64,000 nucleotides of DNA from Escherichia phage vB_EcoM_KAW3E185: the sequence record MK373782.1; one strand, written 5' to 3'. The notes beneath the pieces are model-generated. The model had not been told where the DNA came from and did not search any database. It worked only from the letters and a program-made list of their open reading frames with translations. Position numbers and translations under genes: made by a program. Below, in pieces: positions 15,665 to 64,000 of the stretch. The number at the start of each line of letters is the position of its first letter. The first letter of the stretch is position 1.

Positions 15665-16186
15665 TTAATAACCTCGGTCTTGACGAGCAAAGTTTTCAGC
15701 ATTCTTCAGATAATACAGTTTAAAGATTTCTTCAGCAGAAAGACCCAGACCTTGGAACATGTTCAGAACGAAGTGCAGAATATCAATCATTTCGAATTTA
15801 ATTTCGAGCTGGTCTTCAGGAGACAGTTCATCAATACGACGATTACGATATTCAGCATGTTGTGCTTTCCATGGCTTCCACACAGAGCTGGCAGCTTTTT
15901 CACCGTTGGACATACCACCAAGTGAAGTCAGCAGTTCACGGAATTCATCATCAATATAATCTTTCTGATTACGCAGCCAATCAACAACATCGCCAGCAGT
16001 AGCCAATTCATCAGGATGTTTGTTATGTTCAGGCTTGTCATTTGCCAGACGAACCTGTAAAGATTTCTGCATATCAAGCATTACCTGCAGTGGGTCTTTA
16101 TCTTCGTGAATCAGAGCATTAAAATAAGCTTCTTCTGCTTTATCAACACCAGAAATAAGTTGTGAACATTCGTTAAAGTGTGCCAT
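15665..16186 (-). CDS. 56: dCTP pyrophosphatase (MazG-like), gp56
   Basis: MAHFNEC...DPLQVMLDMQ...LYYLKNAENFARQDRGY matches T4 gp56 as I recall it; start chosen at Met6. Confidence 0.85.
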   Translation of the reverse strand: MAHFNECSQLISGVDKAEEAYFNALIHEDKDPLQVMLDMQKSLQVRLANDKPEHNKHPDELATAGDVVDWLRNQKDYIDDEFRELLTSLGGMSNGEKAASSVWKPWKAQHAEYRNRRIDELSPEDQLEIKFEMIDILHFVLNMFQGLGLSAEEIFKLYYLKNAENFARQDRGY

Positions 16187-61893: not shown

Positions 61894-62202
61894 TCAATTA
61901 GAAAATAAATTTATCCAAGTTTTTTCTTTAATCAAAAATGGGTCGGAATTAAACGCCATTAAACTTTGAGTGATTAATCCCTTAAATGGCCCGTCAATAA
62001 ATTCCATTTTGAAATGTGGAATACTAGTCATCAACCGTGCATTAGGAGCAGTACAAAGAACCTGCTGCCCTGCGAACGGGCCTTTAGTCAAACGGTATCG
62101 TTTAGGTTTAAAATGGTAAATCTCGTAATTTTCTACAAGGGCCCTTTTATTGCATACTGGGCTGTTATAACAATATTCAAAAACTTCAATAGTGGTCATC
62201 AT
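61894..62202 (-). CDS. hypothetical protein (102 aa)
   Basis: ORF on gene strand. Confidence 0.45.
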   Translation of the reverse strand: MMTTIEVFEYCYNSPVCNKRALVENYEIYHFKPKRYRLTKGPFAGQQVLCTAPNARLMTSIPHFKMEFIDGPFKGLITQSLMAFNSDPFLIKEKTWINLFSN

Positions 62203-62738
62203 TGCATTCCAATCACAAAAAATTGAGGACGAGCATTACCGCCGATGCAATATTTGCTTTTGCAACAGTGTTGGACTGTTTTAATATGTACATTGTAAAT
62301 CTTATCCATATCAGGAGCTTTAATAGGCTCGTCAATTATATACAGAATACGAGAAAGCGTTAATCCACGGAATTTAGAACCTTCATTGCCAATAAAACTA
62401 CGAACAGAATCAGTAAATAAACGGAATCGAATATCGTCGCTAGAATAACGAGAAAATTCTTTTTCAATGTTGCCAGCAGAAATTTTAGCATAAGCTGAAG
62501 TATTAGAAAGAACAATAACCGTTCCACCATCATACAGCCAATTAGCAGCAAAGTTAGTCACAGCAATTGATTTACCTGATTGTCGGCCGCCGTCTAAACG
62601 AAGTGTACAGTACTGCTTGAGTACGTCTTCAAATGGTGGGACATAACCGTTCTTACAAATTTCTTCTACTCTAGCATCAGAATGGTGTGTAAAAGCATTC
62701 ATCAGGGATAGATAAGGTCCAGTTAAAAATGTTCTCAT
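62199..62738 (-). CDS. P-loop NTPase-like protein (about 179 aa)
   Basis: Walker A GGRQSGKS and Walker B-like ILYIIDEP; start chosen at Met13. Confidence 0.45.
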   Translation of the reverse strand: MRTFLTGPYLSLMNAFTHHSDARVEEICKNGYVPPFEDVLKQYCTLRLDGGRQSGKSIAVTNFAANWLYDGGTVIVLSNTSAYAKISAGNIEKEFSRYSSDDIRFRLFTDSVRSFIGNEGSKFRGLTLSRILYIIDEPIKAPDMDKIYNVHIKTVQHCCKSKYCIGGNARPQFFVIGMQ

Positions 62739-62914
62739 ATTATTTCTCTTAAGGTTTGGGCCATTCCGTGGCACATGTTAGGTCCTTCGACTCGCTATGT
62801 AAACCCATTACCGCATTGCGCTCGACCTTATTACAGGTTGGAAAAGGTACATCACTCAGAGGACTCGACGTTCATAAGGAGAGGTTGCGTTTCCCTTTAT
62901 TAGACAGGAATTAT

Positions 62915-63175
62915 TTAAGCTTTACCACCAGAAACAATTCCAAAGTTATCAAAATCGTATTCAATATCATCAACATCCACTTTAGGTCCCGCTACGATGT
63001 ATGCGATTTCGCGGCGCTTTGCATAGGTATTGATTTCTTTACCGTCACCACCTAAGAAAGAATATCCATTACGTTTTAATGAGCCAAAGTCTTCAGCATC
63101 ACCTGCGAATGCTTTAACTTTAAATTTAGGGCCTTTAACGACTGCTTCTGTGATAAATTCTTGATACGTTTTCAT
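62915..63175 (-). CDS. internal (capsid-injected) protein with N-terminal capsid targeting sequence
   Basis: MKTYQEFITEA is the T4 internal-protein targeting/protease-site motif; start chosen at Met5. Confidence 0.6.
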   Translation of the reverse strand: MKTYQEFITEAVVKGPKFKVKAFAGDAEDFGSLKRNGYSFLGGDGKEINTYAKRREIAYIVAGPKVDVDDIEYDFDNFGIVSGGKA

Positions 63176-63190
63176 TTTTATGTCCATTAG

Positions 63191-63604
63191 TTAGTAAATT
63201 GATTTGCCATAATATTTGTACCAAGACGGCCGTTGAGCAATTTTTTCATCTAAGCGTGCTTGACTTATCGCAATGGACGCTTCGGACGGGTCATAATTAT
63301 TACGAAATTCGGCAGGGATGTCGGAAATATCCTGGACTGTCGTGTCCTTGATTTTGAAACCACGTTTCAAGCATTCAGCGATTAGCTCGATTTGACGTAA
63401 ACGTAAAAATTCGAGTTTGTCGTAAAAGAATGTTACGTGACCTGTGCCTAAGATAAATGTTGGAGAGATTTTAAAATCCTTTACACGTTTACCGTTTTGA
63501 ACATGTTTACGGACTGCACCAAATACGCGTGGTAATTCACGATACTCAGCCATAAGATGTTGGTCGGCCAGTTCAGAAACAAGTGTTAAATTGATACGAG
63601 TCAT
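63191..63604 (-). CDS. denV: endonuclease V (pyrimidine dimer DNA glycosylase) DenV
   Basis: [35 protein letters not shown] matches T4 DenV as I recall it; start chosen at Met5 with GGAGGA Shine-Dalgarno. Confidence 0.9.
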
Positions 63605-63631
63605 AATTTCCTCCAAGTAGTTGATGAATGT

Positions 63632-63661
63632 ATAGTATCAAAGTCCTTGGAGGAAGTAAAC
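63632..63661 (-). promoter_or_regulatory. early promoter (-35 GTTTAC, 18 nt, -10 TACTAT) upstream of denV
   Basis: Hexamers on minus strand; coordinates approximate. Confidence 0.4.
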
Positions 63662-63662
63662 A

Positions 63663-63944
63663 CTATTTTTCTGAAGCGCCTGAAATATATTTTTCAAGAC
63701 GTTGTTTCATTAGCGAGCCGTTCTTAGCGATTTCTTCCGGTTTATCGCACATACGTAACAAGGCTTCAAGCTTAGCGATATCGCTGGTACGTTCAAATTT
63801 GCGAGTATCTATCTTACTAGCAAGTTCAGAAATACGTGCTAATAGACTTTCGGCTTCAACCAAAGCTGCACCTAGCTTAGTTGCAAATGTGTCAGTAGCT
63901 TCGTTAAGAATAGATTCTGATAAAAATTCACTATATGTTTTCAT
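63663..63944 (-). CDS. internal-protein-like protein with capsid targeting sequence (about 93 aa)
   Basis: MKTYSEFLSE targeting-sequence-like N-terminus; start chosen at Met6. Confidence 0.5.
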   Translation of the reverse strand: MKTYSEFLSESILNEATDTFATKLGAALVEAESLLARISELASKIDTRKFERTSDIAKLEALLRMCDKPEEIAKNGSLMKQRLEKYISGASEK

Positions 63945-64000
63945 ATATACGCTTTCCAAGTTCCTGTTTTAAATGTTGAGATTACGCGTTTCGCGCGATT

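Follow-up and report, generated by a model that had tools for sequence, protein, structure and literature searches.

Two small genes that flank denV in the DNA analysed here are probably accessory internal head protein (ip) genes of a T4-type phage. The window, a stretch of 64,000 nucleotides from Escherichia phage vB_EcoM_KAW3E185 (MK373782.1), belongs to a Mosigvirus (RB69 group), and both reading frames, ORF1 and ORF2, begin with a capsid targeting sequence (CTS) resembling that of the T4 internal proteins. The identity proposed in the first-pass annotation is supported by the leader residues, by matches to PHROGs described as 'internal head protein', by homology to T2 Ip5 and by the annotation of phage JK45, in which RefSeq calls near-identical copies of both genes "internal head protein". 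Both families already carry the internal-head-protein label in public records, so the identification, though correct, is an ordinary one that adds nothing to them. What the analysis shows directly is the two leaders, the families to which the genes belong, the polymorphism of the cassettes and, in the closest relative of the region, the occurrence of gp21 and gp22. Experiments with T4 make it very likely that the products of ORF1 and ORF2 are packaged, cleaved by gp21 and injected.

Layout of the locus

Both reading frames were confirmed at the coordinates given in the first-pass annotation and lie on the minus strand, ORF1 at 62915..63175 (86-aa precursor) and ORF2 at 63663..63944 (93-aa precursor). 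Between them lies denV (63191..63604, minus strand), the gene for pyrimidine-dimer DNA glycosylase (endonuclease V), which matched Pfam Pyr_excise PF03013 (6.6e-14) and phrog_1183 (2.4e-62). Next to ORF2 is the 3' end of gene e, encoding lysozyme (63941..64000, minus strand), whose product ends in NRAKRVISTFKTGTWKAYI before the stop, identical to the GADS24 e end. The ip cassette region is bounded downstream by a homologue of vs.8, a P-loop protein (62199..62738, minus strand; phrog_1488, 2.7e-78), which aligns with T4 vs.8 from its residue 42 on.

Longer versions of both ORFs are produced by mechanical translation, namely MDIK-MKTY... at 62915-63187 and MESVY-MKTY... at 63663-63959. The homologues from RB69, GADS24, AV111, VR7 and JK45 start at MK(T/M)Y, and the ATG of ORF2 (63944-63942) overlaps the TGA stop of gene e (ATGA); therefore, the internal Met is the likely start in both ORFs. 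A further in-frame ATG lies four codons before the ORF1 start, and the ribosome-binding site of ORF1 is weak. The motif start that had been chosen for ORF1 was thus borne out, with the correction that position 63175 is already the start codon of the shorter reading, whose N-terminus is MKTYQEFITE followed by A.

Direct inspection of the gap that separates the ORF2 stop codon from the start codon of denV showed an inverted repeat, CCTCCAAG...CTTGGAGG (63610..63653, minus strand), and the denV Shine-Dalgarno sequence GGAGG lies inside its second arm. Upstream of e, one-mismatch late-promoter-like boxes are positioned like the two TATAAATA boxes of T4 e, and no exact TATAAATA occurs within 62-64 kb of the window. 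Across the ip region, sigma-70-type sites were found at chance level, and there were no terminator-like sites.

The interval between ORF1 and vs.8 contains a conserved non-coding RNA-like element of ~140 nt (62758..62899, minus strand) that is separate from the ip genes. It was matched in 987 phage records, and it occurs in about a thousand T4-like genomes, among them that of T4 (NC_000866, about 64819-64939 on the complement strand). Four base pairs showed compensatory changes, and 98.1% of cells were paired. The covariance model scored 155 bits on the element and 77-91 bits in T4-type sequences that had been left out of model building. No match was found in Rfam or in E. coli genomes, the single-sequence fold was no better than that of shuffled sequences (z = +1.55), and RNAalifold alone detected no covariation. 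A second covariance-model match in the window (15742-15880) was rejected as spurious; its stems are mispaired, the conserved core is missing, and it falls within a 178-aa ORF. In NicPhage and NHEP36, a plus-strand ORF of 42 aa is annotated across the element, but its frame is shifted by one-base indels from lineage to lineage, and it was therefore rejected as coding. Being unannotated and absent from Rfam, the element may be a more original lead than the ip genes.

Leaders and predicted processing

A six-frame scan of the 64 kb for MK.Y.EF returned exactly two matches, both at the starts of ORF1 and ORF2, compared with 0.012 expected by chance from residue frequencies and 0 in 200 shuffles. 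The CTS of ORF1, MKTYQEFITE (63146..63175, minus strand), agrees with the MKTYQEFIAE of T4 IPII/IPIII at nine of ten residues, and the leader of ORF2 agrees at seven of ten. Experiments with T4 IPIII have shown that Y4 and F7 drive capsid targeting and that I/L8 and E10 drive processing by gp21 (PMC9026906). ORF1 keeps Y4, F7, I8 and E10, and ORF2 keeps Y4, F7, L8 and E10. Both leaders are therefore of the MKT(Y/F)xEFxxE type, with an aromatic residue at position 4 and Phe at position 7, and both carry (I/L)-x-E at residues 8-10, the last of these being Glu rather than Asp. In the alignment of the ORF1 family (A1), Y4, E6, F7, I8 and E10 are invariant.

The predicted cut motif of ORF1 is I-T-E↓A, after E10. 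The leader of ORF2, MKTYSEFLSE↓SILNE↓A (63900..63944, minus strand), contains two candidate gp21 sites, L-S-E↓S at residue 10 and L-N-E↓A at residues 13-15. The second of these, after residue 15, is retained in RB69ORF127c, and T2 Ip5 has I-T-E↓S at the aligned position.

The head gene cluster lies outside the window, and the presence of gp21 and gp22 was read from NicPhage instead. NicPhage is the closest sequenced relative of the ip/denV region (99.6% identity across the region compared); JK45 DNA is 99.2% identical to the window across the ip/denV region. In NicPhage, gp21 matched Peptidase_S77 (2.9e-107) and the scaffolding core protein gp22 matched T4_CASP (1.5e-89), and a gp21 inhibitor, Inh, is also annotated. 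With this machinery, the first ten residues of each precursor (MKTYQEFITE or MKTYSEFLSE) would bind the gp22 scaffolding core, and the protein would be built into the prohead. Subsequently, gp21 would cut after the Glu of (I/L)-x-E, at E10 in both proteins and possibly at E15 too in ORF2, which would free small soluble proteins of about 76-83 residues within the head. At infection, these would exit together with the DNA and be active in the host cytoplasm ahead of any phage gene expression. A literature search found no virion proteome for any Mosigvirus.

Families and cassettes

ORF1 matched phrog_2667, 'internal head protein' (9.1e-22), and belongs to the RB69ORF125c family, with 84% identity to RB69ORF125c, about 80% to VR7ORF127c and 99% to the JK45 'internal head protein'. 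The predicted mature protein has 76 aa and a pI of about 6.5. An exhaustive search with the mature domain gave only seven matches; CTS-like leaders (MQTFHEFLVE, MKSFDQYIME and MKTYNEFIAE) open each of the three longest distant homologues, P0015, P0018 and P0019. The ORF1 homologue in phage Lutter is a frameshifted pseudogene. An AlphaFold2 model of ORF1, built from a six-sequence alignment, was discarded (pLDDT 44).

ORF2 is a member of the Ip5 family. It showed full-length homology to T2 Ip5 (BLASTP, 48% identity over 84 residues, E 6e-23) and matched phrog_3499 at 2.1e-46, compared with 1.8e-47 for T2 Ip5 itself. The ORF2 protein occurs at >=95% identity in 232 phage records, a 99%-identical copy is present in Tequatrovirus Lutter, and it is 99% identical to RB69ORF127c past the leader. 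In the RB69 record, a compensated frameshift in this homologue destroys CTS residues 5-12 and leaves the rest 99% conserved; either the record contains errors or the protein can be retained without targeting. The pI of mature ORF2 is 6.3 to 8.1, depending on the cut site. The AlphaFold2 model of ORF2 is all-helical, with four helices (mean pLDDT 72.6, pTM 0.36), and Foldseek found no match to it among viral structures below E 3.8. Neither ORF matched a Pfam family, a PDB sequence search returned nothing meaningful for either, and word-indexed homologue searches recovered close relatives only.

In RB69, GADS24, AV111, NHEP36, VR7 and Lutter, the vs.8-denV interval holds one to three different CTS-bearing ORFs, so that related phages carry different cargo behind the same leader at this locus. 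The order of the ip genes differs in T4, VR7 and Lutter, and the first ~24 coding bases are near-identical among unrelated cassettes. The ip genes are interchangeable cassettes, and the conserved leader-coding DNA may let cargo genes enter and leave between vs.8, denV and e. Phages of this kind also have a near-T4 IPI orthologue at the 57B-tRNA locus, outside the window. Members of the ORF1 and ORF2 families are carried by hundreds of sequenced RB69-like phages with arabinose instead of glucose in their DNA.

Function and relation to known systems

Internal proteins reach the host before any other phage molecule does. T4 Ip1, Ip2 and Ip3 each block a different GmrSD enzyme (PMC12373910), IPIII that lacks its CTS is active from a plasmid in the host cytoplasm (PMC9391042), and McrBC is blocked by Bas37_0260 (10.1101/2025.11.20.689424). 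Type IV restriction is blocked by each of the four proteins characterised in this class, which makes an anti-restriction role for ORF1 and ORF2 plausible by analogy; we rate it slightly below an even chance. It is now the default expectation in the field and not a new idea. Small leader-bearing internal proteins have, wherever a target is known, turned out to disable a type IV enzyme, so that any new family of them offers a probe of host defence; it is also a host-range determinant and thus relevant to phage therapy.

When the first 11 residues were removed, comparison of ORF1 and ORF2 with T4 IPI, IPII and IPIII gave best E values of 0.34 to 6.3 (14-sequence database), and the three T4 proteins map to other PHROGs (4363, 7857 and 5341). 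Orthology to T4 IPI, IPII or IPIII was rejected on this lack of significant similarity between the mature parts. Neither ORF is homologous to any of the proven type IV inhibitors IPI*, Ip2, Ip3 and Bas37_0260, and without significant similarity past the leader, function is not transferable by homology.

NicPhage DNA carries arabinosylated cytosines, 5-ara-dC and 5-ara-ara-dC, and the premise of an unusual sugar modification in the first-pass annotation therefore holds for this closest relative of the region. RB69 DNA is cleaved by GmrSD, and arabinosylated DNA is cleaved in vitro by BrxU, a GmrSD-family enzyme to which NicPhage, a carrier of both genes, is sensitive. None of the GmrSD variants tested was reproducibly inhibited by the ip4-10 genes of T4-like phages, a set that presumably includes ip5. 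This result, the BrxU sensitivity of NicPhage and the IPI orthologue that such phages already carry at another locus count indirectly against an anti-restriction role. More speculatively, ORF1, the Mosigvirus Ip5 variant or both might be injected to inhibit host enzymes with specificity for DNA that contains arabinosylated 5-hydroxycytosine. We think this somewhat unlikely; if true, inhibitor and target would form a new pair suited to a DNA modification whose chemistry was worked out only recently. On this reading, the cassettes would be exchanged across genera, given the 99%-identical ORF2 copy in Lutter.

A less probable alternative is that the products are injected effectors with targets other than type IV restriction, such as RecBCD-linked systems, Druantia, Zorya, toxin-antitoxin systems, host transcription or nucleoid structure. 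The lack of homology to known type IV inhibitors, the negative results with ip4-10 and the BrxU sensitivity of NicPhage are consistent with such targets. Furthermore, capsid cargo extends beyond restriction inhibitors, since T4 uses propeptide targeting to package the ADP-ribosyltransferase Alt as well. However, in all four cases in which the target of a small CTS-bearing internal protein is known, it is a type IV enzyme that is inhibited, and the diversity of GmrSD and other type IV enzymes far exceeds the panels tested.

It is improbable that the packaged proteins have a structural or physical role with no specific host target, binding DNA and helping to condense or eject it. T4 IPII and IPIII are abundant and basic (mature pI about 9.6) and have long been viewed as DNA-associated; Ip5 has no known target, and the ip4-10 genes were negative against the GmrSD variants tested. 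The mature pI values given for ORF1 and ORF2, together with that of the acidic RB69 homologue of ORF1 (4.9), make both proteins poorly suited to neutralising DNA charge, however. The cassettes are gained and lost between close relatives, and this turnover and the Lutter pseudogene argue against a needed structural role. Moreover, even the basic T4 Ip2 and Ip3 proved to be specific enzyme inhibitors. That the MKTY leaders are mere relics of cassette recombination, with one or both genes decaying or encoding untargeted, ordinary early or late cytoplasmic proteins, is scarcely credible: the loss of CTS residues in the otherwise 99% identical RB69ORF127c, the frameshift in Lutter and the upstream ATG and weak ribosome-binding site of ORF1 would suit it, but the targeting and processing residues are invariant through the ORF1 family, including members about 35-41% identical; the ORF2 family alignment also keeps them intact, as do all Mosigvirus copies read apart from that of RB69, and such conservation of ten residues in a protein as widely distributed as ORF2 is unexpected for a relic.

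Among known systems, T4 IPII and IPIII share with ORF1 and ORF2 the neighbourhood (e ... denV ... vs.8), a near-identical ten-residue CTS and a predicted gp21 cut after E10, and the two ORFs are about the size of IPII. In T4, ipII and ipIII both lie on the e side of denV, whereas here one gene lies on each side, and the T4 proteins are basic whereas ORF1 and ORF2 are near neutral. The T4 pair has known targets, the GmrSD enzymes of ECOR21 and of ECOR17.

T2 Ip5 and Ip7 fall in phrog_3499 and phrog_2667, respectively. T2 Ip5 (also Bas37_0261) is a true homologue of ORF2, in the same PHROG and length class, and the two share an aligned (I/L)-x-E↓(S/A) site at residue 15. Its leader is MKTFKEFATK in place of MKTYSEFLSE, a difference that gives ORF2 the additional candidate cut site at E10. 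In T2-type phages, ip5 occupies the 57B-tRNA (ipI) locus, whereas here the gene lies between e and denV and is translationally coupled to e. ORF1 has its counterpart in the RB69ORF125c/VR7ORF127c family, whose members occupy the same position adjoining denV; the family has no Ip number, and a literature search found no published function for it. T2 Ip7 is grouped with ORF1 in phrog_2667, yet the pairwise similarity beyond the leader is not significant. Bas37_0260 was rejected as a member of either the Ip5 or the ORF1 family, with no similarity beyond the leader.

The Dar proteins of phage P1 are unrelated to these proteins, use another targeting mechanism and act on type I restriction, and they provide a functional analogy only. 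Dar head proteins are described as packaged and injected and as shielding incoming DNA from restriction (PMC12810830). Closer in kind are T4 IPI*, a GmrSD inhibitor, and Bas37_0260, the McrBC inhibitor, both small (about 67-76 residues), CTS-delivered and from T-even phages. With sequence likeness confined to the leader, these two serve as the functional model for what ORF1 and ORF2 may do.

Internal-protein genes on either side of denV

The minus strand of the window carries, in the order listed, vs.8 (62199–62738), ORF1 (62915–63175), denV (endonuclease V; 63191–63604, between ORF1 and ORF2), ORF2 (63663–63944) and the end of the lysozyme gene e (63941–64000). A mechanical ORF list placed the starts of ORF1 and ORF2 a few codons upstream; MK(T/M)Y is the start of every homologue examined. 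The sequence of ORF1 is MKTYQEFITEAVVKGPK... and that of ORF2 is MKTYSEFLSESILNEATD...; the ORF2 ATG overlaps the TGA that ends e. Scanning all six frames of the 64 kb gave exactly two matches to MK.Y.EF, which were the starts of ORF1 and ORF2, against an expectation of 0.012 and no match in 200 shuffles. The first-pass annotation had placed two ORFs beginning with the capsid targeting sequence (CTS, the ten-residue N-terminal leader of T4-type internal head proteins) around denV, and these starts are thus real and not a product of chance. It was also right to call them internal-protein genes, although this was already known from public annotation: RefSeq labels both copies in phage JK45 'internal head protein', and both belong to known families.

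ORF2 falls in phrog_3499 (2.1e-46), to which T2 Ip5 also belongs (1.8e-47); ORF2 and T2 Ip5 share 48% identity. ORF1 falls in phrog_2667 (9.1e-22), the PHROG that includes T2 Ip7, and shares 84% identity with RB69ORF125c and about 80% with VR7ORF127c. Without the leader, neither protein showed significant similarity to T4 IPI, IPII, IPIII or the McrBC inhibitor Bas37_0260, and nothing useful came from Pfam and PDB sequence searches with either protein, structure prediction for ORF1 or a fold search with the ORF2 model. When 1.84 billion representative proteins were searched exhaustively with HMMER, using only the mature domain of ORF1 as query, seven matches were obtained, and the three longest distant ones (35–41% identical) begin MQTFHEFLVE, MKSFDQYIME and MKTYNEFIAE. 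That this domain was encountered only behind a targeting leader provides good sequence evidence that the putative cargo is genuine capsid cargo.

MKTYQEFIAE is the N-terminus of both T4 IPII and T4 IPIII. Mutagenesis of IPIII identified residues 4 and 7 as the main capsid-targeting positions and residues 8 and 10 as processing positions, with Asp at position 10 blocking cleavage (summarised in PMC9026906). ORF1 retains Y4, F7, I8 and E10, ORF2 retains Y4, F7, L8 and E10, and both satisfy the (I/L)-x-E rule for cutting. A further candidate cut site in ORF2, L-N-E↓A at residue 15, lines up with I-T-E↓S in T2 Ip5 and is also kept in RB69. Cleavage is predicted to leave a mature ORF1 product of 76 residues (pI about 6.5) and a mature ORF2 product of 83 or 78 (pI 6.3 or 8.1). 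At the start of RB69ORF127c (AY303349; fetched locus L004, 4160–4204), one G is missing and one C is gained 24 nt later relative to the window; this indel pair changes MKTYSEFLSESILNE to MKTYMNFYQNLSLNE and destroys the targeting leader, with the remaining protein 99% identical. Either the old record was missequenced here or capsid targeting was lost naturally.

The head genes of this phage lie outside the window. NicPhage, the closest sequenced relative of the ip region, encodes gp21, the prohead protease that cuts the leader off (Peptidase_S77, 2.9e-107), the gp22 scaffolding core (1.5e-89), gp67 and the gp21 inhibitor Inh. The literature searched contained no Mosigvirus virion proteome. Upstream of e, NicPhage has one-mismatch late-promoter boxes at the place of T4's two exact TATAAATA boxes. 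With ORF2 coupled to e and no site resembling a terminator found downstream of ORF2, it is plausible that e, ORF2, denV and ORF1 are expressed together late. A minus-strand inverted repeat (63610–63653; 8-bp arms CCTCCAAG...CTTGGAGG, 28-nt loop) follows the ORF2 stop and precedes the denV ATG. The denV Shine-Dalgarno GGAGG sits inside its second arm, so that denV translation could be masked in read-through transcripts. In T4, comparable masking of translation has been described for gene e in its early transcripts.

Proposed exchange of ip cassettes among phages

Over the 1.3 kb ip region, identity was 99.2–99.6% with NicPhage, JK42, mobillu and JK45 and about 95% with many phages of Mosigvirus (the RB69 group). 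A 24 kb stretch from mid-window was 98.5–98.7% identical to further members of the RB69 group, among them JK36, MM02 and mar005P1. The Shigella phage JK45 (L001, NC_054940) is filed by NCBI under Tequatrovirus ('Tequatrovirus jaykay'), yet over the 1.3 kb it matches the window at 99.2% identity, and the closest relatives of the window there are Mosigvirus phages, e.g. NicPhage.

The order vs.8, ORF125c-type, denV, Ip5-like, e is common to this window, NicPhage and JK45. Among Mosigvirus phages, AV111 has an extra ORF123c type adjoining vs.8, and the vs.8–denV interval of RB69 and GADS24 holds ORF123c, ORF124c (= Ip10) and ORF125c. The vs.8–denV interval of phage NHEP36 holds a T4-IPII homologue. 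The order is e, denV, Ip10, ORF125c-type, Ip7, vs.8 in VR7 (Gaprivervirus) and e, ipIII, ipII, denV, vs.8 in T4. Lutter (Tequatrovirus; ip module at L011 1736–3400) has e, an Ip5-like gene 99% identical to ORF2, denV, a frameshifted ORF125c-type gene and an IPIII homologue, which suggests that the e-ip-denV module was recently exchanged between genera and that one cassette decayed in Lutter. Unrelated cassettes share almost identical first ~24 coding bases with dissimilar flanks, a pattern that would fit cassette exchange through recombination in leader-coding DNA. A cassette idea of the same kind reportedly came from work on the ipI locus.

Two further CTS genes lie outside the window in the NicPhage 57B-tRNA locus (L007 13716–14335). 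The first is an IPI homologue with a mature part close to that of T4 IPI, and the second encodes an 87-aa protein of phrog_13302 (no annotated function) that begins MKTYKEFIAES, so a NicPhage-type phage has at least four internal-protein genes. RB69 IPI and T4 IPI differ at four residues.

A candidate structured RNA next to vs.8

The 176-nt gap from the ORF1 stop to the vs.8 start codon contains a minus-strand element of about 140 nt (62758–62899) that was near-invariant regardless of the upstream cassette, and the idea that the gap is a scar was rejected on this ground. The element had matches in 987 phage records from at least eight Tevenvirinae genera, T4 included, and none in Rfam 15 or among E. 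coli genomes. In the phage loci fetched, its position is immediately 5' of a vs.8 homologue; in several of the metagenomic viral contigs (L024, L026 and L032) a CTS-starting ORF follows it instead. The rV5-like Vequintavirus genomes share a 39–43-nt core (ACCTGTAATAAGGTCGAGC...GCGGTAATGG) with it, set in another hairpin scaffold. In T4 the element falls within the annotated N-terminal extension of vs.8, 41 residues (L003 2791–2913; NC_000866 about 64790–64912, complement) that are absent from the homologues compared. The conserved vs.8 protein begins MRTFLTGPYL, indicating that the T4 start is probably mis-annotated.

One-base indels between lineages ruled out a conserved reading frame across the element. 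NicPhage and NHEP36 carry a hypothetical-protein annotation for a 42-aa plus-strand ORF antisense over it (62775–62903), and frame-shifting inter-lineage indels argue against its being a gene.

An RNA structure drawn by eye comprised eight helices (seven nested and one pseudoknot). With pairing counted on the same 22 distinct sequences from which it was drawn, 98.1% of cells were paired, compared with 92.2 ± 0.6% in shuffles and only 17–51% when partners were slid. Compensatory changes were observed at four pairs: 6–53 (GC 17, CG 4, AU 1), 12–107 (CG 13, AU 5, GC 4), 13–106 (GC 13, CG 9) and 61–94 (UA 7, UG 7, AU 4, CG 4). The presence of G-U pairs assigns the RNA to the gene strand. Run by itself, RNAalifold did not recover this structure, and the single-sequence fold was unremarkable. 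The covariance model R1, constructed from these sequences, gave 77–91 bits for T4-type sequences left out of its building. It also detected two tandem copies in Karamvirus CW742 (L016 687–940), upstream of the vs.8 homologue, at 94 and 70 bits. The element is a candidate for an undescribed structured RNA and could be a vs.8 leader or a small RNA bordering the array of ip cassettes.

Possible roles of the ORF1 and ORF2 proteins

The first-pass annotation regarded both proteins as candidate anti-restriction factors of a phage with an unusual sugar on its DNA. The sugar premise holds for NicPhage, in whose DNA 5-arabinosyl- and di-arabinosyl-deoxycytidine were shown chemically (PMC13390438). Four CTS-bearing proteins now have a known target: T4 Ip1, Ip2 and Ip3 act on GmrSD of CT596, GmrSD of ECOR21 and the two-gene GmrSD of ECOR17, respectively (PMC12373910), and Bas37_0260 acts on McrBC (10.1101/2025.11.20.689424). 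Each T4 Ip blocks its own enzyme, and cross-protection is absent (PMC12373910). IPIII without its leader is active from a plasmid in the host. Given these targets and the leaderless activity, the best single guess by analogy is that ORF1 and ORF2 may inhibit a type IV restriction enzyme, to which we assign slightly less than an even chance. Three observations count against it: ORF1 and ORF2 have no homology to proven inhibitors, ip4–10 gave no reproducible inhibition among the GmrSD variants tested, and NicPhage is sensitive to restriction by BrxU, a GmrSD-family enzyme (PMC13390438). For these families, an anti-restriction role would be the standard expectation and not a new idea.

It is unlikely that the two proteins serve purely as structural DNA binders, because both are near neutral in charge and genes of their type come, go and decay among close relatives. 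T4 IPII and IPIII, with a pI of about 9.6, are far more basic than the predicted mature ORF1 and ORF2 products.
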